This document shows, one piece after another, positions 16,208-50,012 of a stretch of 54,215 bases of DNA. The number at the start of each line of letters is the position of its first letter. Positions within the stretch are counted from its first letter, which is position 1. Both the position numbers and the translations under genes were made by a program. Origin of the DNA: Defluviitaleaceae bacterium (GTDB taxonomy: Bacteria > Bacillota > Clostridia > Lachnospirales > WRAX01); contig WQZZ01000002.1 of NCBI GenBank assembly GCA_009780485.1, positions 1 through 54,215 on the forward strand, read 5' to 3'. A model generated the notes under the pieces. The model was not told the origin of the DNA, did not search any database, and saw only the letters and a list, made by a program, of their open reading frames with translations.

Positions 16208-16230
16208 ACATTATGAGGGGAGGAAATACA

Positions 16231-16560
16231 TTGAATATCATAAATTACGAAACATCGGGCGGTAAAGATTTAATACGTGAATATATTAATGACCTGCCCA
16301 AAAATGAGAAACTAGAATTTTTTGACATCATAATAACCATAGAAGAAGATGGATACCCAGCCCTTAAAAACATCAACACCAGACATCTAATGGGCAAAAT
16401 GTGGGAAATAAAATTCTCACAAAACCGCATAATGTATATAGTGGCTGATGCTGATAACATTTATTTCCTCCACGCTTGCAAGAAACAAAAAGGCAAGGCT
16501 GAAAAATTTGAGCTTGAAACAGCCGTAAAGCGAGCTAAAGAGTTTGGATTAAAAGTTTAA
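16231..16560 (+). CDS. type II toxin, RelE/ParE superfamily (phage Gp49-like / HigB-like)
   Basis: ETSGGKDLIREYINDLPKNEK ... MWEIKFSQNRIMYIV ... FLHACKKQKGKAEKFELETA matches the Gp49/DUF891 pattern. TTG start at 16231 follows GGAGGAAA; the track start is 16213. Confidence 0.65.
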   Translation: MNIINYETSGGKDLIREYINDLPKNEKLEFFDIIITIEEDGYPALKNINTRHLMGKMWEIKFSQNRIMYIVADADNIYFLHACKKQKGKAEKFELETAVKRAKEFGLKV

Positions 16561-16613
16561 TAAGGGTTAATCATTTATTTAACTTGTTATATTATAGTGA
16601 AGGAGGGCTTTTG

Positions 16614-16922
16614 ATGCCTGGAAGAAAAGTTGACATTGACGAAATCAAAAGGGAAAGGCAAGAGTTAATTAATTCTGACCCCGAATTGGCAAAAGCTTCG
16701 GAGGAATGGAACAAAGAATATGTATTCCGCAAAAAACTGACGCAAGCCCGCAAAGAAGCAGGACTTACCCAAAAAGAGCTTGAAAATCTTTCTGGGTTAG
16801 ACCAACGCACCATCAGTCGCATGGAGATTGACGAAAAAATCAGCCCTAGCATTAGGACGCTGATTAAGTATCTAGGTGCTTTGGGGTATCAATTGGATAT
16901 TACCAAAGCTACAGCAGAATAA
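16614..16922 (+). CDS. XRE-family HTH antitoxin (HigA-like)
   Basis: GAAGGAGGG RBS before ATG 16614. LTQARKEAGLTQKELENLSGLDQRTISRMEID is an HTH. Lies immediately downstream of the Gp49-like toxin. Confidence 0.65.
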   Translation: MPGRKVDIDEIKRERQELINSDPELAKASEEWNKEYVFRKKLTQARKEAGLTQKELENLSGLDQRTISRMEIDEKISPSIRTLIKYLGALGYQLDITKATAE

Positions 16923-20168: not shown

Positions 20169-21647
20169 TTAGCGACCATGTGTGCCGTGGTTGATATTAG
20201 GCATCGGCATATCACGGTTAGGGTTATTGAGTAGTGATATGCTAACGGCTTTTGCCTTTGTTAATTCTCGTGATTGACTGGATAAATTTTTATGAGTAGT
20301 GGAGTGTTTGGCTCGTTGCTTTTGTAGTGTTGCACGTTCTGCTTGTAGGTCTTTAGGATGAGGGACCGGCTTGCCTTTTGACTTGCCGTAGCCATTAGTT
20401 GTAAAATAATTTATAGCAGCTTGACGGCGTGCTAAAGTTGATGGGTCGGTTGTGTTAGCACCCTCATTATAATTTCGTATCTCGACCAATAGTTGATTGA
20501 CTTCTTCTATTCGCTTGTCAACTTTAACTAGAGCATCGCCCACTAAATCTTGCTTGTGTTGTACTGCTTGCAACTGCCCATCCAGCTTGTCCATGGTGTC
20601 AATGTTTTGTTGGTTGAGGTAGGACAGGGTATTGATTGCGTCCCTGTTTTTGAAACCAGCGTCTAGTTGTGCATGGATGATGGATTGCATCTGGGTTAGG
20701 AAGTCTTGGGGTTGGTATTGGTGGGTGTTGTCATCTTGGTATGATTGTTGCTTAGTGTCAACATCTTGGTGGACTTGGTGTGCAACCTGTATCTTCGCAT
20801 CATCATGTGACGGCGAGGATGCAGGTTGTGTCTGATGATGTTGGCTGGCAATCTTGGCTTCGATGTTTGACAACCCATAACCCTCACCCAAAGACTTTTC
20901 TGTTAGGCGTACTGGTTGCTTAAAATCATTATGGGACAAGGAAATATTTTTGCCCCTTTGCTTGGATGACCAGCCAAAGTCGGACTTCAAAACCGATAAA
21001 AACTCTTTTAAGTTTTTGGGTTGGTGCTTATGTAGTGCCAAGTCAATATTGGCACGCAGTACATCACGATTTGAAAGATGGGCGTACTTTTTGACTTGGT
21101 AGGATTGCATGGTCTGCTCCCTACTGGATGACCTCTGACTGGGCTTTTCAATGATAGACAAACCATTCTCCAAGCAGAGGTAATCACTAACTTTTCGCAA
21201 TGCCATTGCGGAGAATGAGAAGTCGTGAAACTTCCTATCAGCATCCAACTGCACCGCATTAAAATAAATATGGTTATGTATATGACCACGGTCAACGTGA
21301 GTGCCGACCACAAAGGCATGATTATTTTTAGTAAATTTTAATGCTGTTTCATAACCAATGCGGTTGGCATCTTCTGGACTTATTTCCCCTGGCTTGAAGG
21401 ATTGTTTAAGGTGATACAAAAGCACATCTTTGTCAACTGGAAGATGTCGCCCACCCCCGTTGTGATATTGGGCTTTGGTTTGCAGAAACTGACTGGATGC
21501 AGTTTCTGGTGTACAGCCATGAACGGACACAAGGCGACCGCTGTCTGTCTTGTTGGGGTTGATACCGTAATTGATACAGTCACTCATGGTGCGGGTTGCG
21601 GATTTGCCTCTGGATGCTTTGATTGATGAAATGTTTGTCCATGCCAT
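20169..21647 (-). CDS. relaxase/mobilisation nuclease domain protein (MobA/VirD2-type)
   Basis: N-terminal relaxase domain with histidine triad VGTHVDRGHIHNHIYFNAV. Long Q/H/D-rich linker and coiled C-terminal part. Confidence 0.85.
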   Translation of the reverse strand: MAWTNISSIKASRGKSATRTMSDCINYGINPNKTDSGRLVSVHGCTPETASSQFLQTKAQYHNGGGRHLPVDKDVLLYHLKQSFKPGEISPEDANRIGYETALKFTKNNHAFVVGTHVDRGHIHNHIYFNAVQLDADRKFHDFSFSAMALRKVSDYLCLENGLSIIEKPSQRSSSREQTMQSYQVKKYAHLSNRDVLRANIDLALHKHQPKNLKEFLSVLKSDFGWSSKQRGKNISLSHNDFKQPVRLTEKSLGEGYGLSNIEAKIASQHHQTQPASSPSHDDAKIQVAHQVHQDVDTKQQSYQDDNTHQYQPQDFLTQMQSIIHAQLDAGFKNRDAINTLSYLNQQNIDTMDKLDGQLQAVQHKQDLVGDALVKVDKRIEEVNQLLVEIRNYNEGANTTDPSTLARRQAAINYFTTNGYGKSKGKPVPHPKDLQAERATLQKQRAKHSTTHKNLSSQSRELTKAKAVSISLLNNPNRDMPMPNINHGTHGR

Positions 21648-30606: not shown

Positions 30607-31170
30607 TCAAAATCCTTTTGCAAGAACAAACCGATTAAATTCTGGACACAATCCAAGACTTGCCATTAAAGCCCTATTAAATTTGTTACCAGCTTTATTT
30701 AGGCTACGTATATACCCAACTTTGTGTCTAAAGACAGATTTGTCCAATGTATGAACCTGCTCGAACTGGACAACGCTGGTTTCAAAGCGGTCAAAAGACC
30801 TCATATTCTCGAACTTTATGTCACGTTGATTTATGTAAGCGTGGGTTGGCATATGGGGCTTTTTGTCTGTTGATGTGATGATTGCCACAATCACAGTGGG
30901 AGCGTAGTGGTTGCCTATGTTGTTTTGTAGGACTAGCACAGGGCGTACACCGCATTGACTACTTCCTATGGTTTTGGGGATGTCGGCGAAGTATATGTCA
31001 CCTCGTTTGTAGATTGCGGTTATGGGGTCGAGAATTGTGTATTCTGGTATTACGTAGTTAGGTTTTTTATGGGTAGACTTTGAAACGTCATATCTTCTTT
31101 GGTATTTTCTCATGGGGTCATTTCGCCCCCTCCTTGTCTTTGTTTGGTGCATTGTTTTCAGGTTTGTCAT
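30607..31170 (-). CDS. MazF/PemK-family endoribonuclease toxin with a basic N-terminal extension
   Basis: KRGDIYFADIPKTIGSSQCGVRPVLVLQNNIGNHYAPTVIVAIITS ... SVVQFEQVHTLDKS aligns by eye with B. subtilis EndoA/MazF. Start is 31170 or ATG 31113; either leaves at least 35 extra N-terminal residues. Confidence 0.8.
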   Translation of the reverse strand: MTNLKTMHQTKTRRGRNDPMRKYQRRYDVSKSTHKKPNYVIPEYTILDPITAIYKRGDIYFADIPKTIGSSQCGVRPVLVLQNNIGNHYAPTVIVAIITSTDKKPHMPTHAYINQRDIKFENMRSFDRFETSVVQFEQVHTLDKSVFRHKVGYIRSLNKAGNKFNRALMASLGLCPEFNRFVLAKGF

Positions 31171-36104: not shown

Positions 36105-37844
36105 TCACACAGTAGATTTATGTATTTTTGCTTGTGTGTTGTTTTTGGGCGGAACTCTCGCCCTTGGTCTGGGTGTTGCTTTTTGTTGTCGGGGTTTGGT
36201 GTTGCTACCCTTACTAGGCTTCTTTATGCCACCATTCATCATCCTATATACTGGATGTGTCGTCACATCAAACTTATCCGATAAAAACGGTGGAACACCT
36301 CTAAGGATTAGCAGACACTTGCCCCCATCCAGACGAGCCAGCTCGTCAGCAGTCATAAGTTCACGCCCAGTCTTTTTGTAACTTTTGCTAAAAGACCCGC
36401 TTTTGCCTTTGGTTTCAGAATTGTCCATCATGTCAATGGTTTCTTTACCCATAACTCTTGTGAGGTATTTAAGCGTTTCTTCATCGTCACCGCCAAGGAA
36501 AAGCTTTGTATCACAGTTGCCAATAATTGTGTTCATATGTTCTTTGTATACGGCTTTTAGTTGGCTAAGGTTTTGCAGTATTATACAGGCTGATATTTCA
36601 CGGCTTCTAATGGTGGCAATGAGCCTGTGAAAGTTAGGTATTTTGCCAAGATTTGCAAACTCGTCCAAGATACAGCGGACGTGGACTGGTAATCTTCCGT
36701 CACGAAATCTATATTTGCTCTCTGCACGGTTTACGAGAGTGGAGAACATTTGAAAGTAGAGCATGGTTGCTATAAAGCTGTAGGTGGAGTCCGTATCATC
36801 TGTAATAACGAAAAGGGCAGTTTTTCTATCGCCTATAGTTTCCAACTTCATTTCATCTTTTTCCATTACATCCCTAACCGCTTGGATGTCAAACACTGCA
36901 AGGCGTACACCGCATGAAATGATGATAGATTTTAGGGTCTTGCCAGCACCTTGCTTGAATTTTTTATATTGCCTTACAGAAAAGTCATCTGGGTACAGGT
37001 CTTCTATTCTCTCAAACTCTCTATCCACCATACTTTTGTAGTTCTCGTCCCCTTCTTTAACTTCCATGCTTGTAACCATTTCAACTAAGGTGTTCATGTT
37101 GTGCATGGTTTTGTCCTTTACATGAAATTTGATATATGCTATTAAAGCCATATACAAAAGCTTTTCGCTTTTTGTCCAAAAGTCTCCGTCATCACTGGAT
37201 TTAGTGTTTTCTGTAGTGCTACTCTGTAGAACATTTACAACTCGCAGTATATCGTCCTCGGTCTTTATGTAATCAAAAGGATTATAGCCCATAGAAGCAC
37301 CGAAATCCTTTAGGTTAAGCACACGCACGTCATATCCGCCCACCTTCTCCAAGACCTTACCTAGTGAATAAAAAAGCTCTCCTTTGGGGTCCGTTATTAC
37401 GTATGAGCTGTGCATTTGCATTATATTTGGGACGCAGAAGAAGCGAGTTTTACCAGAGCCAGCACCGCCAAATACCAGCATATTTTTATTGCGTCCATAC
37501 TTGGGGATGTCTGGTCGGCTGTTCATTGTTAGACCTTCTGTGGCAGTTAGGATTACATTTTGTCTGGGGTTTGTGTCCATGTATGGTTTCATGTCCTCAG
37601 ATGTACCCCATCGGGCAGAGCCGTGTTCTATACCACGTCTATATTTACGCTTGTCTTTACCCATGACCCTAATCGACACAAAGGCGGTGGCGGTTGCTCC
37701 AGCTAGAATGAAGTTATTGAACTGCACTAATTGCAGGGTAAAGTTGATATAAAATACCACAAAGGCAACCATTGCAAATATTATGGCGTTTGATATTATT
37801 TCTCTTTTTTGTTTTTCTTTTTTGTCTGTGGTTATGGTGTACAC
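36105..37844 (-). CDS. VirD4/TraG-type type IV coupling protein
   Basis: N-terminal TM helices, Walker A VFGGAGSGKTRFFCVPN and Walker B-like region ALFVITDD. Basic C-terminal tail. GTG start is uncertain. Confidence 0.9.
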   Translation of the reverse strand: MYTITTDKKEKQKREIISNAIIFAMVAFVVFYINFTLQLVQFNNFILAGATATAFVSIRVMGKDKRKYRRGIEHGSARWGTSEDMKPYMDTNPRQNVILTATEGLTMNSRPDIPKYGRNKNMLVFGGAGSGKTRFFCVPNIMQMHSSYVITDPKGELFYSLGKVLEKVGGYDVRVLNLKDFGASMGYNPFDYIKTEDDILRVVNVLQSSTTENTKSSDDGDFWTKSEKLLYMALIAYIKFHVKDKTMHNMNTLVEMVTSMEVKEGDENYKSMVDREFERIEDLYPDDFSVRQYKKFKQGAGKTLKSIIISCGVRLAVFDIQAVRDVMEKDEMKLETIGDRKTALFVITDDTDSTYSFIATMLYFQMFSTLVNRAESKYRFRDGRLPVHVRCILDEFANLGKIPNFHRLIATIRSREISACIILQNLSQLKAVYKEHMNTIIGNCDTKLFLGGDDEETLKYLTRVMGKETIDMMDNSETKGKSGSFSKSYKKTGRELMTADELARLDGGKCLLILRGVPPFLSDKFDVTTHPVYRMMNGGIKKPSKGSNTKPRQQKATPRPRARVPPKNNTQAKIHKSTV

Positions 37845-37896
37845 CCCCTTTTTGATTTTTTGCTTGTATATGGCTATAGTTTACAAGTTGATACCC

Positions 37897-38424
37897 TCAC
37901 GCATTTACCGTTGTTCCGTATGCAAGGAAAATGACAATCGTTAATACACTCAATATCAATATAAGTCTTATAATCGGCATGAAATATCTACCGTAAATTC
38001 CCCGAAACACCCACAAACCACCTTTCTTTCCTTTCTTGCCGTTACAACGAACACAACAGGCAACTAGATTTGAAATGTGGTTGACCCCATCGGGCAGGGT
38101 TTTGAAATGCTCCCTCAAATGCTTGGTATACTGCACCCTGCGGATGGAATGGATGTGGTCAACAACGATTTTAGGCTTGTCCCACATGACACGCCCGCAG
38201 TATGGACAAAAGTATAGACTTTCAAAGGCTTTGTTCGGGAATACTTTCAAAAGGAAGCCTTGTACGGAGGGTGGTATTTGCCAACCCTTATCATGCTCGA
38301 AGTATCGCCGTCTGTAGTCGTGACTACGTTTTAGGGTCTTTGTTCGTTCTATGTAAGGTTTTTTATTCACGATGTCCACCTTGCTCATGTGACCCAGCAG
38401 GTTTTGTATGAGTAAGTTGACCAT
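37897..38424 (-). CDS. HNH endonuclease with a C-terminal transmembrane anchor
   Basis: CPYCG ... VVDHIHSIRR ... NHISNLVACCVRCNGKKG gives the HNH/Zn-finger pattern. C-terminus FMPIIRLILILSVLTIVIFLAYG is hydrophobic. No clear RBS. Confidence 0.65.
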   Translation of the reverse strand: MVNLLIQNLLGHMSKVDIVNKKPYIERTKTLKRSHDYRRRYFEHDKGWQIPPSVQGFLLKVFPNKAFESLYFCPYCGRVMWDKPKIVVDHIHSIRRVQYTKHLREHFKTLPDGVNHISNLVACCVRCNGKKGKKGGLWVFRGIYGRYFMPIIRLILILSVLTIVIFLAYGTTVNA

Positions 38425-38507
38425 CGTTTATAAATATGGTACAATCGCAATTAGGGTTAGGGAGTACGTAATTCCGCATTTTACCCCTAGGAGGAGAATG
38501 TACAAAG

Positions 38508-39230
38508 ATGATGTTTTTGGATGTCCAAGATTTAGATGAGTTTTTTTCTTTGTTTTTGCAAGAGGTGGAACGCTTGCCCCTAAATAGAAGACGTGACTGC
38601 AAAAACACCTTAACTGAATACATAAACTTTTTCAACGCAATACCTCCTACGTATTATAAACTCGAATACCGCCGTAAATTTGAAGTGACCGTCTATACGG
38701 AGCGACCTTTTTATACTATACGCTGGTGTGAAAAGACATTAAATGACCTTGCAACAAGCAATCCTCAACACAAAACACGTATAAAGGTTGAAAAATGTAA
38801 GGAATTGGTGGACGCTGATATTTTACAAAACCCAAAGCAACTACAATTCATACCAAGTAAAGGAGCAATAATAATCGGTGATACATCAACTATATTCCCT
38901 ACATGTCCTCTTACAATCCTTGACGGAAATCATCGCTTCGCAAAGGCTGTATACGATAAAGCTGAATATATAGAAGCTTATTTTCTCCATCCTTGTATTC
39001 ACACAGAAGCGATTAGCAATGAATACATCAAAGCACTCTATAAGACACACAGCAATTGCTTGTTGACTTTGATGTATTATTCAGGCGTAATGAAAGCGGA
39101 CGAGGTGAAAAAAGGAATTCTTTTTCTTGATGGGTTATCCGACCCCCTAAGCAGCAGTCTCCAGAAAATTGGTAGTGATAAGAGGTTATCTACTATACTA
39201 AGGAACTTTTTCAGCAGACCAAGACACTAG
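38508..39230 (+). CDS. hypothetical protein with a ParB/Srx-like DGNHR motif
   Basis: AGGAGGAG RBS. IKVEKCKELV ... PLTILDGNHRFAKAVYDKAEYIEAYFL resembles the ParB N-terminal/sulfiredoxin-fold core (DGxHR). It is the only plus-strand gene inside the transfer region. Confidence 0.45.
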   Translation: MMFLDVQDLDEFFSLFLQEVERLPLNRRRDCKNTLTEYINFFNAIPPTYYKLEYRRKFEVTVYTERPFYTIRWCEKTLNDLATSNPQHKTRIKVEKCKELVDADILQNPKQLQFIPSKGAIIIGDTSTIFPTCPLTILDGNHRFAKAVYDKAEYIEAYFLHPCIHTEAISNEYIKALYKTHSNCLLTLMYYSGVMKADEVKKGILFLDGLSDPLSSSLQKIGSDKRLSTILRNFFSRPRH

Positions 39231-39296
39231 GTTTGCTTTATCGATGCTTTCGTTTCATGCCACAATATTCCTAACGGTTATATGTTGCATTGTATT

Positions 39297-39827
39297 TCAA
39301 AATGGTAAATTATCATCAGCGAGGCTGTTATCAACTTCATAAAAAGTATCGTTGGGCGATGTGTCGTCTTGGCTTTGGCTTTGAGGTTGGGTGTGAGATT
39401 GACTTTGGGGATTGGAATTATTATCACTTTGTGAAGAAGAAACATCAGTATCGTTTTGGTTATTGTTGGCACTTTCATTTCTGCCCTCAAAACTAGCACG
39501 GCTTTCTGCAAAGAAATGTTCGTTGGTGATTACCTCTGTAACCCAACGGCGATTACCTCCTTGGTCGTCATAATTACGCACCTGTATTCTTCCAACAACG
39601 CTGACTAATTGTCCCTTTTGATAGAACTTTGCAACAAACTCCGCATCCTTGCCGAAGCAAGTGCAGTTGATGAAGTCAGCGGATTGTTCGCCAGCATCTT
39701 TTCTTTCACGGCTTATTTGCCTGTCTACAGCTAAAGTGTAGCGAACTACAGCAATTGGATTTGCTCCTGCACTGTAACGTATTTCTGGGTCACGGGCTAG
39801 TCTGCCCATTAGGATTATTTTGTTCAT
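39297..39827 (-). CDS. ssb: single-stranded DNA-binding protein
   Basis: MNKIILMGRLARDPEIRY ... OB fold, Q/S/N-rich linker and acidic tip DDNLPF. Confidence 0.9.
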   Translation of the reverse strand: MNKIILMGRLARDPEIRYSAGANPIAVVRYTLAVDRQISRERKDAGEQSADFINCTCFGKDAEFVAKFYQKGQLVSVVGRIQVRNYDDQGGNRRWVTEVITNEHFFAESRASFEGRNESANNNQNDTDVSSSQSDNNSNPQSQSHTQPQSQSQDDTSPNDTFYEVDNSLADDNLPF

Positions 39828-40929: not shown

Positions 40930-43452
40930 TTATCTCCCAGATAGTTCTGGTGGTGGCGGTGTGTTAGGTGTTGGGGCGGATAACCCCTTATCTTGTTGAT
41001 TTTGTTTGCCAAATCCCATTTGCTCCGCCTTATTGATTTGTTTATTAAATTCTTTATTGAATTTCTTGTAATCTCGTCCCATCTTAAAAGGGATACTATG
41101 GTCAACTGTATTGGTGGTGACATGATGCTTGTCACTCCATCCCTTTGCAAAGACCAGTTTTTCAGCTATATTTTCATGGTGGCGACGAAGGTTGTTTGGT
41201 TCACGTAGTTGGGCTTGTTTGGCTAGTGCATCGGGGTTTATTAATTCTTTGACCCTTGTTAGCTCTGCTGGGTCTTTTGGTTCAAATTTTTGTATGCTGT
41301 AATCAAGTAGCCCGTTGTTGTTTCTGCTACCTTCGTAGGTGACAGAATAGACATCGTTATTGATGTTGTAAAATGCCATGTTGTGGCTGACAAGGGCTGG
41401 TGGGTGGAAGCTTGTGTTGGTGGTTCTGTCGTTGCCTTTGTCGTTGTCCTTGTAATTATCGGTATATCTGCCCTCATCAGTACCGCTGGATATTCCAGCC
41501 CCTCCATAACGTGCAGTATTTCTCTTATCCACCAAAACATCATTAAAGTCTTTAATGGGTCTGGTATCTGGGTTTGAAATATCGTTCCAATCCCTAATTA
41601 CCCCTACCTGCGGTGGTTTATATTCCACCGTATATTTGTCTGGATATTTCTGGTTTAACTGGCTCATAATCCGATGTGCAGCGTCTTGTCCTGCTTTGTC
41701 GTTATCGAGGTTTAAGACAATTTTGTCAATGTTGGGATGTTGTTTTAGGTAGGTTTCAAGCCCTAATGAGGACGTACCCCCAAGGGATATTCTGTGTACA
41801 CAATTCCAGTGTTGTCCAATTTTTGGGTTTTGTTTGTCTAGTGTTGCTTTGGACATGGCATCAATAGGAGATTCTGTCACAAAGACTATCTTTGAGATGT
41901 CTTTGTGTTGCTCTTTGATTGGTATAACGAAAGGCACGGACTTAGTGCTATTGGTGGCTTCGCCTATAAATTTTTTGTCTGTATTATCCTTTGTTCCTCT
42001 CAGGGAGGCATATTTGGCAACACCATCTTGGTCAAAGCCAACAAAAACGGCGTTGTTGTGGGGTTTACTTTGATATAAAACCTTTTGCTCAAAGCAATAA
42101 TTTACAATATCCTCGTCTATGGCTCTATTTTCTGTGAGATAATCCGTCACGGCTGTGCGACCCCAACTGGCTTTGGGTAATTCAATCGGACCTTTTGGTT
42201 CGGGTGGTTCGGGTGGGTGTGGTTCTTGAGGTTTAGGGGCTTGGTTAAGGTTGCTATCCACATTGCTTTTAGGTGTATGTTGGGGCTGTCCAGAGTGTGT
42301 CGTTTGGGATTGGTTGGACTTGACTGTTTCCGCATAGTTAGGCGTTAGATACTTTACTGCATCTACGAAGTTGTACCCTCGCACCTTAGACATAAAATCT
42401 AGGGCAGTTTTTCCGCTTATGTCCCTAGAGTGCCATTTCCAAGCATAACCACCATCTTTTGAAGGGAAGATTTTCAGGCTGTCATGGTCTTTTAGTTTGT
42501 ATGTATCTGCACTATGACGGGTTATGTTGTCGGGTTCGTTGGTTTTTATGTAATCTAGTACACATACAGAACGAGCTTCGTCTCTACGTGCTTCACTAAC
42601 GAATTTGTCGTTGACTTTACTGTTGGTTTTACTGTTGGTCTTACTACTGACAGTGCCAGTGTTGTTGTGGCTTGATTTTTGCTCTTGCTTAGGTTGCTGG
42701 ATTTGTTCTTGGTTTGGTTCTTGTCGGGGTTGTGTGTCATTTTTTGGATTGGGTTGTGCGGGTTGTGGTTGAATTGATGAATGTGATGGATAGTCTGGAT
42801 AGTTTGAGTGGTCAGGGTAGTACGGGTATTCCTTGGATTGGGATTGCTTTGAGTATTGTGATATTTGTTGCTCATAAGACCATAGTGCGTCATCCCAAGG
42901 GTCTTGTGTGGAATGGTTATTTTGGTTGGGGTTGGGTTGGGGTGCTGTTTGCTCGTGTTGGTCGGAATTAGACAAAGGTGCTGTTTGCTCGTGTTGTAGG
43001 GGTGTAGAGGATGTAGAGGATTGCTCTGCTTGTGATTGTATTTGTGATTGGGTGTGGTGGATGTGTTCTGGATTGGTTTGTTGTGGAGTTTGGTGCAAAG
43101 ATGTATTTGCCAGTGTCTGCTGTTCTGCGGTTGATGAGGATTGATTTGTCTGCCCTAAGGTTTGATTTTGACCTTCCATGCCCTTTTGGGCGTTAAAACC
43201 CTCTAAAACTGCCCTGTCAATCGCTTTGCGAAGTTCTGCCGTGGCAGGGAAAGCAATGTCGTAATATTTACCGTCAGACCCCTTGCTTTGGGGCATGGCT
43301 ACAAAGTTGCCTTTTGCACCACTCATCACACGTACACCGTTTATGGCTATTAGATTGTTTATGGTGATGTTGGCAAAGGCTAGGGTGCTGTTTTTGGGGC
43401 TTAGAATTGGGTTGATTTTTACGTCTATTTGGAATTGTTGGGGTTGGGTCAT
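40930..43452 (-). CDS. fusion protein: N-terminal SpoVG-like domain, ~200-aa low-complexity linker, DUF3991/Toprim primase-like region, C-terminal domain
   Basis: Residues ~1-90 (LAFANITINNLIAINGVRVMSGAKGNFVAMPQSKGSDGKYYDIAFPATAELRKAI) match SpoVG. VTDYLTENRAIDEDIVNYCFEQKVLYQS ... AVFVGFD is DUF3991-like. VFVTESPIDAMS ... LNLDNDKAGQDAA is Toprim. Confidence 0.75.
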   Translation of the reverse strand: MTQPQQFQIDVKINPILSPKNSTLAFANITINNLIAINGVRVMSGAKGNFVAMPQSKGSDGKYYDIAFPATAELRKAIDRAVLEGFNAQKGMEGQNQTLGQTNQSSSTAEQQTLANTSLHQTPQQTNPEHIHHTQSQIQSQAEQSSTSSTPLQHEQTAPLSNSDQHEQTAPQPNPNQNNHSTQDPWDDALWSYEQQISQYSKQSQSKEYPYYPDHSNYPDYPSHSSIQPQPAQPNPKNDTQPRQEPNQEQIQQPKQEQKSSHNNTGTVSSKTNSKTNSKVNDKFVSEARRDEARSVCVLDYIKTNEPDNITRHSADTYKLKDHDSLKIFPSKDGGYAWKWHSRDISGKTALDFMSKVRGYNFVDAVKYLTPNYAETVKSNQSQTTHSGQPQHTPKSNVDSNLNQAPKPQEPHPPEPPEPKGPIELPKASWGRTAVTDYLTENRAIDEDIVNYCFEQKVLYQSKPHNNAVFVGFDQDGVAKYASLRGTKDNTDKKFIGEATNSTKSVPFVIPIKEQHKDISKIVFVTESPIDAMSKATLDKQNPKIGQHWNCVHRISLGGTSSLGLETYLKQHPNIDKIVLNLDNDKAGQDAAHRIMSQLNQKYPDKYTVEYKPPQVGVIRDWNDISNPDTRPIKDFNDVLVDKRNTARYGGAGISSGTDEGRYTDNYKDNDKGNDRTTNTSFHPPALVSHNMAFYNINNDVYSVTYEGSRNNNGLLDYSIQKFEPKDPAELTRVKELINPDALAKQAQLREPNNLRRHHENIAEKLVFAKGWSDKHHVTTNTVDHSIPFKMGRDYKKFNKEFNKQINKAEQMGFGKQNQQDKGLSAPTPNTPPPPELSGR

Positions 43453-45910: not shown

Positions 45911-45937
45911 ACCGCCCTTGCTACAACAAGAAGCGGT
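45911..45937 (-). terminator. minus-oriented hairpin plus T-run upstream of the recombinase gene
   Basis: Minus strand reads ACCGCTTCTTG ttgtag CAAGGGCGGT followed by TTTTTTG. No minus-strand gene lies upstream other than ssrA. Confidence 0.4.
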
Positions 45938-46028
45938 AAATAAATCACGAAATGCACCACATCAGAATAATACATTTCCACGCCCCTATTATACCACCCT
46001 TCGGGCTGGAATGGAAGGGGTAATTTTT

Positions 46029-47675
46029 ATGAGTGAAAAGTTACATGGATTAAAAGCCGTTATCTATGCCCGCTACAGCTCCAATAATCAGTCGGAGCAA
46101 TCCATCGAAGGACAATTAAGGGTCTGCCAAGAGTTTGCCGAAAAGCACAAAATGACAGTTGTTGGACACTATATTGACCGTGCCATCAGTGGTACAACAG
46201 ACGAGCGGGAAGAATTTCAACGGATGCTAAAAGATTCCGATAGAAAATTGTTCGGAGCTGTCATTTGCTATAAAATGGACAGATTTTCCCGCAACCGATA
46301 TGATTCTGCTATTTACAAGGCAAGACTAAAAAAGAATGGCGTAAAAATTTGCTACGCAGCAGAAGCCATTCCAGATGGTCCAGAAGGCATAATTTTGGAG
46401 TCTTTGCTTGAAGGTATGGCTGAATACTATTCAGAGGAACTATCCCAAAAAATACGCCGTGGACAACGTGAATCAGCTTTGAAATGCAAGCACATGGGAG
46501 GCAAGCCACCACTGGGGTATAAAGTTACAGATGAAAAGAAATATATCCTTTGCGAAGTCACTGCCCCATTGGTTGTAAAAATTTTTAATATGTACGATAC
46601 TGGTATACCCGTCATTGACATTTGCAATGAACTAACTGCAATGAACACAAAGACTGGTATCGGTGGCATTTGGAACAAAAACAGTTTGCGTAAGATTTTG
46701 AAGAACCAAAAATACATAGGAATTTACGAAGCCAAAGGGGTTCGTGTGGAAGGTGGTGTACCATCAATCGTGGATATAGAACTTTTTAAGCGTGTACAGG
46801 AGCGTGTGGAGATAAACCGAAAAGCCCCTGCAAAAGGTCAATCTGAAAAGGCTGATTTTTTATTGACAGGCAAACTCTACTGTGGCAAGTGCCAACAAGG
46901 TATGCTTGGTATCAGCGGTAAAAGCAAGAGTGGTAAAGTCCATTATTACTACACCTGCGGTAATAAGTGGCGACACAAAACCTGTGATAAAAAGAATGTG
47001 CGTAAGGATTGGTTGGAAAATTTCGTTGTAACGGAAACGGTCAAACATATACTACAACCCGATAAAATAAATATTATCGCCCAGCGTTGCGTGGAAATCC
47101 ACAAAAAAGAGATGTCAGACGACAGAGAGTTGACCTACTTGAAAAATCAACTTGCCGAAACCCAAAAAGCCCTTAATAATCTTATGACAGCAATCGAACA
47201 AGGTATAATCACAAAATCAACTAAAGCCCGCCTTGCAGAGCTAGAAACAGCAACCGAAAAACTAGAATTTGAAATAAACTTGCAAACCACCCGTCAACCC
47301 CAGCTAACAGAAAGACACATCATCTTCATGCTGTCACAATTCCTACGTGAAACAGACGCAGAAATCGAAGAATATAACAGAGATGTGATTGAAGCCTTTA
47401 TTGACAAGGTTTATTTGTATGACGACAAGATAATAACCACCTATAATTTAACAAAAGAAAATTCCGAGCTTGACAGCACGGAACTCGCTTTGGTTTGTGA
47501 TGCTGATTTGAAAGGATTTTCTGAGTGTTCGACTTTAGAACACTTACATGGAGGCGAGGAGAGTCGAACTCCTGTCCGAGAACCAGTCCACGAGGACTTC
47601 TTCCATCATAGTCAGTTTCGGAATTTCCCCCGCACACAGAAAACTGACAAAGCTGTGTGCGGGGTAGCTACTTAA
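46029..47675 (+). CDS. large serine recombinase; the last ~39 codons are read from antisense ssrA
   Basis: KAVIYARYSSNNQSEQSIEGQ (catalytic Ser), recombinase domain, Zn-ribbon CGKCQQG ... YYYTCGNKWRHKTCDKK and coiled-coil. ATG 46029 follows GGAAGGGG. Confidence 0.9.
   Translation: MSEKLHGLKAVIYARYSSNNQSEQSIEGQLRVCQEFAEKHKMTVVGHYIDRAISGTTDEREEFQRMLKDSDRKLFGAVICYKMDRFSRNRYDSAIYKARLKKNGVKICYAAEAIPDGPEGIILESLLEGMAEYYSEELSQKIRRGQRESALKCKHMGGKPPLGYKVTDEKKYILCEVTAPLVVKIFNMYDTGIPVIDICNELTAMNTKTGIGGIWNKNSLRKILKNQKYIGIYEAKGVRVEGGVPSIVDIELFKRVQERVEINRKAPAKGQSEKADFLLTGKLYCGKCQQGMLGISGKSKSGKVHYYYTCGNKWRHKTCDKKNVRKDWLENFVVTETVKHILQPDKINIIAQRCVEIHKKEMSDDRELTYLKNQLAETQKALNNLMTAIEQGIITKSTKARLAELETATEKLEFEINLQTTRQPQLTERHIIFMLSQFLRETDAEIEEYNRDVIEAFIDKVYLYDDKIITTYNLTKENSELDSTELALVCDADLKGFSECSTLEHLHGGEESRTPVREPVHEDFFHHSQFRNFPRTQKTDKAVCGVAT
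47525..47554. other. attR of the ICE (element-side arm plus core TGGAGG)
   Basis: GTGTTCGACT (47525-47534), 14 nt, TGGAGG (47549-47554, the last 6 nt of tmRNA read in antisense). Confidence 0.6.
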
Positions 47676-47891
47676 GTCTTTACCCCATGGCGTAGCAACA
47701 TAGGATAAGTGCCCCATCTGTCGATGCCAGACCCCTGACCGACGGGTTTATCAGGGCTGACAACGGCTTTAATTAAGCCGCAAAAGCGTAATCGTTATTG
47801 TCGATTATATTTAGGTTTGCCTTGATGACGCAGATGCGCTGCGGATGGCTATCCAAGTTTCCCAAATCCCCGTCGAAACCAGTACGCCCCC
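47549..47891 (-). ncRNA. ssrA: tmRNA (transfer-messenger RNA)
   Basis: 5' GGGGGCGTACTGGTTTCGACGGGG and 3' GGACAGGAGTTCGACTCTCCTCGCCTCCA form the tRNA-like domain. Tag reading frame GACAATAACGATTACGCTTTTGCGGCTTAA (47802-47773) encodes DNNDYAFAA-stop after AAATATAATC. CCA not encoded. Confidence 0.9.
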
Positions 47892-47951: not shown

Positions 47952-48076
47952 TAGGAAGTTTGTGACACCCACGACAATCTAATCCCGAAATAAGCCATCA
48001 ATCGCATAAAATCACCGCCCGATTCTTTTTGGTTGAAGAGTGTGAAAAATATTTTCGGCAAACGCAGAAAAAACTC

Positions 48077-48127
48077 TTGACACTTAGTTTAGACATCTGT
48101 ATAATATTAAATATCGGCAATTGCCGA
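48077..48127 (+). promoter_or_regulatory. consensus promoter plus palindromic operator of the BlaI-like operon
   Basis: TTGACA (48077-48082), 17 nt, TATAAT (48100-48105), then the perfect palindrome TCGGCAATTGCCGA (48114-48127). An extra half-site TTTCGGCAAA lies at 48053-48062. Confidence 0.6.
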
Positions 48128-48175
48128 AAATCTCTCGAGAGAGTAATACAATTATTTTTTGGAAGGGGTGACACA

Positions 48176-48553
48176 ATGGAAAAGATGAAAAAACTGCCGG
48201 ATGCGGAGTTTGACATCATGAAAGTGGTATGGGCAAATGAACCGCCCATCACATCAAACATAATCATGCAACAGCTGGGCAATGTGAAGGGGTGGAAAGC
48301 GCAATCTGCTATCTCGTTAATGCTTAGGCTGGTTGAGCGGGGTTTTCTTCGTACAGAGAAGAACGGGAAAGAACGCACTTACTTTCCTTTGGTTGATAAG
48401 GAGGATTACCTTAAGTTTGAAACGGACAACTTTGTCAAACAGTTTCACGACAATTCATTCCTTAACCTTGTTACAACTATGTATGGGGATAAACCCATGA
48501 GTTATGACGATATTGACGAATTGCTAAATTGGGCAAAAGAGCGGAGGGGTTAG
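48176..48553 (+). CDS. BlaI/MecI/CopY-family transcriptional repressor
   Basis: LPDAEFDIMKVVWANEPPITSNIIMQQLGNVKGWKAQSAISLMLRLVERGFLRTEKNGKERTYFPL is a BlaI-type winged helix. ATG 48176 follows GGAAGGGGTG. Confidence 0.85.
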   Translation: MEKMKKLPDAEFDIMKVVWANEPPITSNIIMQQLGNVKGWKAQSAISLMLRLVERGFLRTEKNGKERTYFPLVDKEDYLKFETDNFVKQFHDNSFLNLVTTMYGDKPMSYDDIDELLNWAKERRG

Positions 48554-48554
48554 T

Positions 48555-50012
48555 ATGCAAAATTTCATCATAACTTTACTAATTTGCTCTGCTACCATGT
48601 CCGTGCTTGCATTGTTGTATATGGCAATCACACCACTTTTGGCAAAACGTTATTCTGAAAAAGGGCGTTATTACGCATGGTTGGTTATTGTTATCGGTTT
48701 GATAATCCCTTTTAGACCGAGTTGGACAAGTGCGATATTTACTGTAGACGTTCCTGTGGCGAATGTTGGAGATTACTTTGCAAACACGGCTACACAAACA
48801 TGGAACGGTAACATTACGACGATACCAACACTTGTGATTGATGCAAGCACTTTACCTATTGCCACAACCTTTAGCATTACACTGTGGCAAGGTATAACGG
48901 TGGTGTGGTTGATTGGTGCGGTAGCATTTATTGCTTTACAAGTCATCAGACACTATCGTTTTGCGAAAACAGCAAGACGATGGAGCGAAACTATAACAAA
49001 CAAGCAAATCTTATCCACATTCAATGAGTTAAAAGCGGAAATGGGGATAAAGAAGAGAATAGGCTTGTGCATTAACCCTTGTGCTGGCAGTCCAATGATG
49101 ATTGGGTTTATCAAACCACAAATACTATTGCCAACGGAAGAACTGGCAGAAGATGAACTACGCTTTATTCTAAAGCATGAACTTGTGCATTATAAACGTA
49201 ACGACTTGCTGTATAAATCTTTGGTGCTTGTAGCAACGGCGATACATTGGTTTAACCCCGTTGTTTATCTAATGGCAAGGGTGGTCGATTCATTATGTGA
49301 AACATCTTGCGATGCCGAGGTTGTGCGTAACGCAAACAAAGATACCCGCCTAGAGTACAGCGAAACAATAATTGGTGCAGTGAAGTATCGTTCAAAAACA
49401 AAGCTGTCTACAGCTTTTTCAACTAATTTTTATGGAGGTAAAAAAGGAATGAAAAACAGAATTTCGTCCATTATGGACACGAGCAAGAAAAGAGCGGGAG
49501 CATTTATATTATTTGGTATGCTTATCCTAACATTGGGTACTGGTGTTGTGGTTGTGGCAAATTTAAGTGTTTTTGCAAGCCAAGAAATTATAGCAGAGTC
49601 TGTTGAACAAGTAGAGCTTATAACGAATGAACCAGTAGAATTTATAGAAATTGAATCAGACATGTCGGTTGTTGTGGAAATACCTGAACGAAACGCAAGT
49701 GCTGAAATGACATATTTGCTTCTAATCCTAGAAGGTTCTTCGGAAGTGCCAACTATGCAATTGGAGCATGCTGTTAGAATCGGTGCTAATGCAATTTATA
49801 GCGAGTTTGGTTTATGTATAGACGGTTTAACAGGAAGAATGTTGTTTATCGATGGTGCAGATGGTATACAAAGATGGGTAGGCAACATTTTTTCTGAAGA
49901 ATTAACCACCCATTCAGATGCTAATGAATTATTTCACTTCTCAATAAATGCAGAAACGGACGAAGTGCTGTGGATGCATATGAACACCGTGGATACGCCA
50001 TTTAATGGGTAA
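48555..50012 (+). CDS. BlaR1/MecR1-family M56 metallopeptidase sensor with a non-PBP extracellular domain
   Basis: TM helices and HEXXH motif (ILKHELVHYKRND). The C-terminal ~150 aa lack an SxxK-type penicillin-binding motif. Confidence 0.75.
   Translation: MQNFIITLLICSATMSVLALLYMAITPLLAKRYSEKGRYYAWLVIVIGLIIPFRPSWTSAIFTVDVPVANVGDYFANTATQTWNGNITTIPTLVIDASTLPIATTFSITLWQGITVVWLIGAVAFIALQVIRHYRFAKTARRWSETITNKQILSTFNELKAEMGIKKRIGLCINPCAGSPMMIGFIKPQILLPTEELAEDELRFILKHELVHYKRNDLLYKSLVLVATAIHWFNPVVYLMARVVDSLCETSCDAEVVRNANKDTRLEYSETIIGAVKYRSKTKLSTAFSTNFYGGKKGMKNRISSIMDTSKKRAGAFILFGMLILTLGTGVVVVANLSVFASQEIIAESVEQVELITNEPVEFIEIESDMSVVVEIPERNASAEMTYLLLILEGSSEVPTMQLEHAVRIGANAIYSEFGLCIDGLTGRMLFIDGADGIQRWVGNIFSEELTTHSDANELFHFSINAETDEVLWMHMNTVDTPFNG

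Follow-up and report, generated by a model that had tools for sequence, protein, structure and literature searches.

A predicted tail-anchored HNH nuclease and a ParB/Srx-like protein encoded by adjacent, separately inherited genes of a clostridial conjugative element

A stretch of 54,215 nucleotides (nt) from a Defluviitaleaceae bacterium (contig WQZZ01000002.1, assembly GCA_009780485.1), here called the window, contains an integrative conjugative element (ICE) of ~30 kb that is of the clostridial Tn1549-like type and is integrated between chromosomal genes. Next to the coupling-protein gene of this ICE lie two divergent genes. One encodes an HNH nuclease with a predicted C-terminal membrane anchor (37897 to 38424, minus strand). 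The other encodes a protein of 240 amino acids (aa) (38508 to 39230, plus strand) that carries the motif DGNHR in a core resembling ParB and sulfiredoxin (Srx), and belongs to a rare, unannotated family of the ParB/Srx superfamily. A first-pass annotation had proposed that the two form a single system. The gene neighborhoods of their relatives speak against this: the HNH and DGNHR genes are not a co-inherited pair but two independent accessory genes of one ICE, and that they also function independently is the reading favored here, if with some reserve. Sequence families, conserved residues, the fold, gene order, and non-co-occurrence were computed directly; membrane topology, substrates, and biological role are deduced from these.

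Do the two genes travel together? The first-pass annotation had itself named, beforehand, a check of neighborhood conservation as the test that could refute the pair, and that check shows no co-occurrence. Relatives of the HNH were gathered by a word-index search, which gave six, and by scanning metagenomes and viral contigs for a pattern, which gave ~90 more loci; grouped at roughly 85% identity, the loci form ~51 clusters. When every open reading frame (ORF) of more than 100 HNH-family loci was scanned with a DGNHR-family profile, matches came only from copies of the window's own element, which was recovered in three other metagenome samples. The window itself corresponds to the metagenomic contig k141_262239 of ENA ERZ27257297. 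No DGNHR-family gene lies within 10 kb in the ~50 other HNH-family clusters. Looked at from the other side, this HNH is absent from all seven other DGNHR contexts. Because the genes do not co-occur elsewhere, the pair reading is unsupported.

There is, of course, a precedent for such a pair. GmrSD combines a ParB/Srx domain, with the motif DGQQR, and an HNH domain, and it also exists as separate GmrS and GmrD genes (PMC4619093, PMC5512222). By analogy, the window genes could together make up a type IV restriction or exclusion module, split as in GmrS and GmrD, in which the ParB/Srx protein would act as a sensor or regulator dependent on nucleoside triphosphates (NTPs) and the tethered HNH would be the effector that cuts entering DNA. 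Two observations suit such a module. The window genes share a divergent control region of 84 to 137 nt, and the DGNHR relative P0035 of Bacillus sp. Cr_A10 is likewise divergent from an HNH-containing gene; this is the sole DGNHR context with an HNH neighbor, an unrelated, ScoMcrA-like SRA-HNH_2 protein. Nevertheless, the module is highly improbable. GmrS and GmrD co-evolve and are inherited together (PMC4619093), unlike the window genes, which fail to co-occur across the ~50 HNH clusters and seven DGNHR contexts. Neither protein has a system-specific match in PADLOC, in keeping with the earlier remark that the two fit no described defense system; GmrSD itself is not matched, and the only hits are generic HNH matches to PtuB. 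The latter, to the Septu system (PtuA/PtuB) at E 7.8e-5, reflect the generic HNH motif only, and no PtuA ATPase was found nearby. No GmrSD, BrxU, or SspE structure appears among the 50 matches listed by Foldseek. Finally, the HNH gene belongs to the transfer operon, whereas the DGNHR gene is on the other strand with its own promoter.

Some points do weigh against reading the two as independent genes of the kinds described here. The example of P0035 makes it conceivable that ParB/Srx and HNH proteins are loosely partnered and that one nuclease can stand in for another, and the domain content of the window genes formally parallels that of split GmrS and GmrD. The DGNHR contexts are few (eight loci by exact look-up, the window included, and several of them on short contigs). 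As for the descriptions of the proteins, membrane insertion of the HNH was called from hydropathy alone, no Pfam model of the ParB clan (ParB_N, DUF262, DndB, and others) is significant for the 240-aa protein, and its individual Foldseek matches in the PDB have weak E-values (0.04 to 1) over ~85 to 190 aligned columns.

What kind of enzyme does the HNH gene encode? Its maximal ORF of 175 aa holds FCPYCG...VVDHIHS...NHISNLVACCVRCN, with the motifs CPYC, DHIHS, and CCVRCN. The Pfam HNH model (PF01844) scores 25.7 bits, above its gathering cutoff of 21.4 bits, and aligns over all of its 47 positions to residues 73 to 134, and in PHROG the ORF matches many phage HNH families, down to E 3.5e-9. This catalytic core (38023 to 38208, minus strand) comprises a CxxC zinc knuckle, D89-H90, N115/N119, and C124-x-x-C127-N128. 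In the family alignment, C73, C76, D89, H90, N115, N119, C124, C127, and N128 are all invariant, and so is an N-terminal basic motif (E26, R33-S34, Y37-R38). By these signatures, the protein appears to be a genuine zinc-finger HNH nuclease with an intact active site. Gene callers place its start at M13, the ATG at 38388 (163 aa), or at a GTG at 38370 (157 aa), and its homologues begin at the position of the GTG; the true length is therefore probably 157 to 163 aa rather than 175. Two other roles for an HNH protein on such an element were considered and ruled out. It is not the relaxase, as the ICE already has a MOBP relaxase and a MobC gene, and it is not a homing endonuclease, given its conserved tail anchor, its location within operons, and the lack of an intron or intein context.

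The protein was said to end in a transmembrane helix, unusually for an HNH enzyme, and this part of the first-pass annotation has held up well. A C-terminal hydrophobic segment, IIRLILILSVLTIVIFLAY (residues 151 to 169; 37918 to 37974, minus strand), is predicted to form a tail-anchor transmembrane helix, with a mean Kyte-Doolittle hydropathy of 2.72 over 19 residues, and only 6 residues follow it. Across the family, a G-x-W-x-x-R-G motif precedes a hydrophobic stretch of variable sequence in nearly every member. The 19-residue mean is at least 1.6 in 36 of the 49 clusters with a complete tail, and the anchor is kept down to ~30% identity, including on plasmid pNPD11_1 of Clostridium baratii. 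Lysine and arginine residues are more frequent in the 15 residues before the hydrophobic segment (mean, 2.7) than after it (0.84). Because hydrophobicity is kept in so many clusters with a basic stretch before it, the tail is not there by chance; what is conserved is the feature and not its sequence. Basic residues flanking a membrane helix mark its cytoplasmic side (the positive-inside rule), so the basic stretch ahead of the helix predicts that the catalytic domain faces the cytoplasm. As a separate observation, three HNH paralogues, 55 to 60% identical, occur on three conjugative elements in one metagenome sample (L001/L019, L003/L028, and the window; all of these loci come from ERZ27257297 or JGI 3300010162), and one of the three, P0007 (115 aa), has lost the hydrophobic tail.

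The position of the HNH gene is as informative as its sequence. It lies on the same strand as the coupling-protein gene (36105 to 37844, minus strand), whose start is 52 nt past the HNH stop, so the earlier placement of the HNH directly upstream of a VirD4 gene is correct. The coupling protein is VirD4-like and of the CD1115 type (Pfam T4SS-DNA_transf, E 6e-65), and it is 52 to 55% identical to CD1115-family proteins of Tn1549-like elements, going by RefSeq names. What do related elements carry at this place? In the elements with the most similar coupling proteins, from Vescimonas, Enterococcus faecium, Anaerococcus, and Monoglobus, a PcfB-family gene of ~160 aa is found just upstream of the coupling-protein gene in all four. 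The stop and start codons of the two genes overlap in three of them, and the Anaerococcus element has one gene between. In the window, a jackhmmer search with the four PcfB proteins found no homologue of PcfB or DUF6017; here the HNH sits in the PcfB slot, as the first gene of an operon for the coupling protein and the type IV secretion system (T4SS). In view of this slot, the shared strand, and the short distance of 52 nt to the coupling-protein gene, the HNH belongs to the transfer operon rather than breaking it up. The first-pass annotation had seen both genes as interrupting the operon like an inserted cassette; that description fits the DGNHR gene but not the co-directional HNH.

Elsewhere, the HNH family keeps varied company. 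Close relatives (45 to 60% identity) come mostly from a few JGI/ENA metagenome samples and adjoin genes for ParA/ParB, TopoIII, a relaxase, an M23 peptidase, a sortase, ArdC/primase, or a coupling protein. More distant ones lie near genes for VirB4, TopoIII and UvrD, CD1107-like proteins, DUF4317, and cell wall hydrolases. In 27 of 40 clusters, the genes on either side run in the same direction as the HNH. With its neighbors changing and its orientation following theirs, the HNH family is thus an itinerant accessory gene within the operons of Firmicute conjugative elements. Relatives from other collections include the one on pNPD11_1 (35% identity), where the HNH directly follows a coupling-protein-like gene, and one on the human gut contig MT835474.1. 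Adjacency to a coupling protein therefore recurs without being the rule. The MT835474.1 contig is deposited as an unverified "Bacteriophage sp."; its HNH homologue region also has genes for DUF4317, NlpC/P60, and a VirB11-like ATPase, and by its gene content it looks like a conjugative element rather than a phage. The C. baratii homologue is labeled simply "HNH endonuclease" in RefSeq. A search of the available literature turned up neither a study of HNH nucleases anchored in the membrane and carried by conjugative elements nor anything relevant on the function of PcfB.

How might such a protein work? As the first gene of its operon, it would be made together with the coupling protein and the T4SS. 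It would work from a tether on the cytoplasmic side of the membrane, as a metal-dependent nuclease or nickase that cuts or nicks DNA where the transfer channel opens. The purpose could be processing of the transferred strand or, alternatively, the destruction of entering rival DNA.

The second gene required a more exhaustive search before it yielded any relatives. The 240-aa protein has no match in Pfam, NCBIfam, or PADLOC, and in PHROG it has a marginal ParB-like match (E 0.031); for its family as a whole, PADLOC gives nothing better than E 0.014. A word-index homology search found only the protein itself, and tblastn against plasmids found no match. Exhaustive HMMER searching of 1.84 billion representatives returned 26 matches at E <= 1e-3, and 24 of them are true relatives, proteins of 200 to 240 aa; the other two, P0010 (a PKD-repeat protein) and L015 (a polysaccharide synthase), are false positives. 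Ten members that were looked up are metagenomic singletons or doubletons, and one more comes from Bacillus sp. Cr_A10. Of 23 relatives scanned, one has a ParB_N match (E 0.13). Pfam, NCBIfam, and PADLOC offer no dedicated model for this family or for that of the HNH.

The protein contains PLTILDGNHRFAKAV (residues 133 to 147), with DGNHR encoded at 38922 to 38936. I122, G140, N141, R143, and N183 are invariant in both family alignments (A1 and A2), and W73, P120, D139, and H142 are nearly so. While a single-sequence AlphaFold2 model was unusable (predicted local distance difference test score [pLDDT], 43), a model built with the family alignment has a pLDDT of 88.5 and a predicted template modeling score (pTM) of 0.84. 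Together with the alignments, the secondary structure of this model places a ParB/Srx-like core at approximately residues 88 to 170 (38769 to 39017, plus strand), including PII (120 to 122) and D139-G-N-H-R143; flanking the core are an additional alpha/beta domain at the N terminus and a helical domain at the C terminus. All 50 of the matches listed by Foldseek against the PDB belong to the ParB/Srx superfamily, and they include ParB, PadC, Noc, KorB, SbnI, sulfiredoxin, serine kinase, Atu1540, pNOB8 ParB, and Osa. Among predicted viral structures (BFVD), the best match has an E-value of 1e-4 and a probability of 1.00, and nearly all of the named ones are ParB/Sulfiredoxin. The earlier suggestion of a ParB/Srx-like core is thus supported by the model, which assigns the core to that fold.

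Where within this superfamily does the protein belong? It is not a ParB clamp. At the nucleotide-phosphate-binding turn ParB reads GERR, and this position (GERRxR, box II), characteristic of the CTPase clamps ParB, Noc, KorB, and HerB, is the family-invariant D-G-N-H-R in the DGNHR proteins. Moreover, no ParA-like gene is beside any family member examined; the window neighbors are HNH and SSB. With neither the GERR motif nor a ParA partner, the clamp was rejected as a candidate. In sulfiredoxin the same turn reads GCHR, and in GmrS and DndB it reads DGQQR or DGQHR (PMC4619093).

Another thought is that the protein has no nuclease activity but is a small-molecule or protein kinase or NTPase like SerK and SbnI, or else a regulator with their fold. 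SbnI is the best PDB match of the family profile, aligning PIIV...iDGNHR onto PVLVV...IDGVHRF, and it also has the highest Foldseek probability among the matches listed (0.91; best E, 0.04), where structures of free serine kinase are found as well. The two groups have a DG[VH]HR-type motif in common, and the helical domain lies C-terminal to the core, an arrangement also seen in SbnI and SerK. Set against these likenesses are E-values that are marginal (0.19 by profile), the lack of metabolic partner genes in any DGNHR context examined, and the confinement of the family to mobile elements and defense islands. A kinase-like role is thus quite unlikely.

The first-pass annotation had looked instead to Osa of pSa. 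Osa targets substrates bound to the coupling protein (PMC5696584), and its ATPase and DNase activities reside in one site (PMC4619093). An Osa-like fertility inhibitor would be an ATPase/DNase that attacks DNA at the coupling protein of a rival, with the HNH unrelated to it. The shared ParB/Srx fold and the presence of the Osa structures 4o7k and 4ovb among the Foldseek matches are consistent with this, as is the setting of the DGNHR gene, constitutive looking and beside a coupling-protein gene on a mobile element. These two structures, however, rank 22 and 26 (E 0.36 to 0.38), weak matches at the level of the fold, and the better of them (probability, 0.28) is no better than ParB, Srx, or SbnI. 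In sequence the protein does not resemble Osa, most DGNHR members are near integrases and not T4SS genes, and Osa is known from Gram-negative IncW plasmids. An Osa-like role is therefore unlikely, and by the model the protein is not demonstrably closer to Osa than to other members of the superfamily; the proposed link does not extend beyond the fold.

The genomic settings of the DGNHR family tell more. The gene in the window is the only convincing plus-strand gene from ~17.4 to 43.5 kb, in agreement with its earlier description as the sole such gene of the transfer region; one gene caller adds a 106-aa plus-strand ORF that overlaps prgI. The gene of the closest relative, L014 (40% identity), is divergent from a membrane-protein gene whose product was taken to be PrgI-like on reading its sequence, not by profile search. 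In L104 and L105, the DGNHR gene lies between genes of no known family on an ICE or integrative and mobilizable element with a serine recombinase. In other cases it adjoins a tyrosine integrase (L106), is near a serine recombinase (L107), or sits at the edge of a prophage beside the prophage's serine integrase (L108). In Bacillus sp. Cr_A10 (L012), it is in an island with type IV restriction-like genes. Genes on the opposite strand are found on both sides in four of the five contexts with known flanks (the window, L012, L104, and L106), and the upstream neighbor is divergent in six of seven. Members of the family are thus mostly lone, counter-oriented genes near the integrases or recombinases of ICEs, prophages, and defense islands. 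The Bacillus island merits a description of its own (JARHXR010000001.1, 100 to 121 kb). It has genes for SRA-HNH_2 (ScoMcrA-like), DUF2357 with PDDEXK_7, DUF8426, and DUF7690/7687, as well as a D12 methyltransferase, FtsK/SpoIIIE with Replic_Relax, and another HNH; from this content it looks like a defense island on a small integrative element.

A lone gene needs its own signals for expression, and the DGNHR gene has them. A sigma-70-type promoter lies upstream at 38417 to 38445 (plus strand), made up of TTGACC (38417 to 38422), a 17-nt spacer, and the extended -10 TGGTACAAT (TGgTACAAT; 38437 to 38445). With 10 of 12 matches and the TG present, it is the best promoter-like site from 37700 to 39500. 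The extended -10 reported in the first-pass annotation is thus real, but it had been placed at 38443 to 38451. The 5' leader that follows (38474 to 38496, plus strand) includes a block, CCGCATTTTACC (38474 to 38485), recognized by alignment with the upstream region of L014, and a strong ribosome-binding site, AGGAGGAG (38489 to 38496), found by a scan. Upstream of the L014 homologue, the -10 is kept as TGTTAGAAT, and the window and L014 (~465 to 510) share TGnTAnAAT, AATTrGG, and the leader block at only 40% protein identity. Because promoter and leader are kept with so distant a relative, the DGNHR gene travels as a self-contained single-gene cassette; the leader block itself could be an operator or an RNA element. 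Base composition was uninformative as a sign of recent horizontal insertion (GC content of 0.37, compared with 0.41 to 0.42, and similar dips are found elsewhere in the element). Scans for terminators and inverted repeats found no terminator-like site on either side of the gene. On its way from ssb to the HNH and coupling-protein genes, a transfer-operon transcript would have to cross the DGNHR gene antisense, and one possible speculation is that the two transcripts interfere with each other.

The neighboring ssb gene raises a further possibility, that both genes belong to a leading region and serve establishment or anti-defense in the new host as soon as transfer is over. The ParB-like HerB/YfjB is encoded beside ssb in the leading region of F-like plasmids (PMC13370423, PMC11541004). 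In the window, too, both genes are beside ssb and primase genes, typical genes of establishment, and some HNH relatives are near ArdC and primase genes. Yet the DGNHR protein does not have the GERR CTP-binding motif of ParB clamps, its gene is on the strand opposite ssb, the relaxase gene and mobC are ~15 kb away, and DGNHR relatives are also found on prophage edges and chromosomal islands. An establishment role for the two is accordingly rather improbable. What is proposed instead for the DGNHR protein is an NTP-binding ParB/Srx enzyme that would act as a DNase under NTP control or as an NTPase. Its own promoter would supply it while the element is quiescent, for conflicts with phages or other mobile elements. 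Precedents for such a role are Osa, GmrS, and phage ParB-like DNases (PMC5512222). Like the role suggested for the HNH, it is probably of this kind, to go by fold, motifs, predicted topology, and context.

The remainder of the ICE is a nearly uninterrupted run of minus-strand genes. First in the order of transcription is a SpoVG-DUF3991-Toprim primase gene (40930 to 43452, minus strand), followed by three small ORFs and then ssb (39297 to 39827, minus strand; Pfam SSB), which is convergent with the DGNHR gene and precedes the HNH gene. After the coupling protein come Maff2, TrbL_2 (TrbL/CD1112), PrgI, and a VirB4-like ATPase (VirB4/CD1110). Further downstream are a PemK toxin, a 1597-aa surface protein, a CD1107-like protein, a MobC/NikA-like protein, an M23 peptidase, and, last in the listed order, the MOBP relaxase (20169 to 21647). 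The primase joins its N-terminal SpoVG domain to DUF3991 and Toprim through a long, low-complexity linker rich in Q, P, S, and N. The PemK/MazF-like toxin gene (30607 to 31170) is inside the T4SS operon, with the gene for the VirB4-like ATPase on one side and that for the surface protein on the other, and PemK-like genes recur on two other HNH-bearing elements (L001 and L003). Near the left side of the element is a Gp49 (HigB-like)/helix-turn-helix pair resembling a toxin-antitoxin system (16213 to 16922).

At the other end (45918 to 47891), a large serine recombinase gene (ending at 47675, plus strand) abuts a complete transfer-messenger RNA (tmRNA) gene (47546 to 47891, minus strand; Rfam, 156 bits), which overlaps the 3' end of the recombinase ORF by ~130 nt. 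The ICE appears to be integrated right at the 3' end of ssrA, a target that is usually used by tyrosine integrases. Just past the tmRNA gene is a BlaI/BlaR1-type sensor-repressor pair (48029 to 50012). Chromosomal genes flank the element at both ends, for polysaccharide biosynthesis at 5 to 14 kb and for BlaI/BlaR1 and an RND pump at 48 to 53.5 kb.

Overall, the present result is mainly a correction and an annotation, and a two-gene system is unsupported. A bolder reading, which is doubtful, would make the tail-anchored HNH a widespread, unrecognized component of Gram-positive conjugation, and the DGNHR gene a mobile single-gene module for defense or fertility inhibition with its own promoter. 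The HNH would then stand where the T4SS and coupling protein open to the cytoplasm, in place of PcfB, for strand processing or for entry exclusion at the level of DNA. If the roles suggested above for the two proteins are right, conjugative elements of clostridial and enterococcal type would carry a conserved nuclease, tethered to the membrane, with a role in DNA transfer or exclusion, and the ParB/Srx superfamily would count one more mobile module of a single gene for conflict between elements. Both would bear on the competition among, and the spread of, resistance-carrying ICEs in gut Firmicutes.

How do the two proteins compare with known systems? Both are variants of known superfamilies, at the level of sequence or architecture. 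The window genes match the domain content of GmrSD, a ParB/Srx NTPase-like protein and an HNH nuclease, but they are divergent, are not co-inherited, and have no DUF262, DUF1524, or PADLOC match. Osa of pSa, like the DGNHR protein, has the ParB/Srx fold and is carried by a conjugative element; the likeness is weak and at the level of the fold, the host range differs, and the DGNHR contexts are mostly near integrases. With the ParB/Srx superfamily as a whole, the DGNHR protein shares the predicted core fold and (I/V)DGxHR at the strand-to-helix turn that binds the nucleotide phosphate. It differs in having its own N-terminal alpha/beta domain and additional conserved residues (W73, H165, H181, and N183), in reading DGNHR and not GERR, GCHR, or DGQHR, and in having no ParA partner and no Pfam ParB-clan match. 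PcfB occupies the same slot as the window HNH, upstream of a CD1115-type coupling protein, and is of similar size (~160 aa), but the two have no detectable sequence similarity, and PcfB has neither the HNH motif nor the hydrophobic tail. The nearest solved relatives of the window HNH by profile are the PF01844 zinc-finger HNHs 4h9d (Geobacter metallireducens) and 5h0m (phage), which have the same CxxC...DH...N...CxxCN beta-beta-alpha-metal core. To this core of the small HNHs, the window family adds its basic N-terminal motif, a long insert between DH and N, and the predicted C-terminal tail anchor, and it makes its home in conjugative elements.

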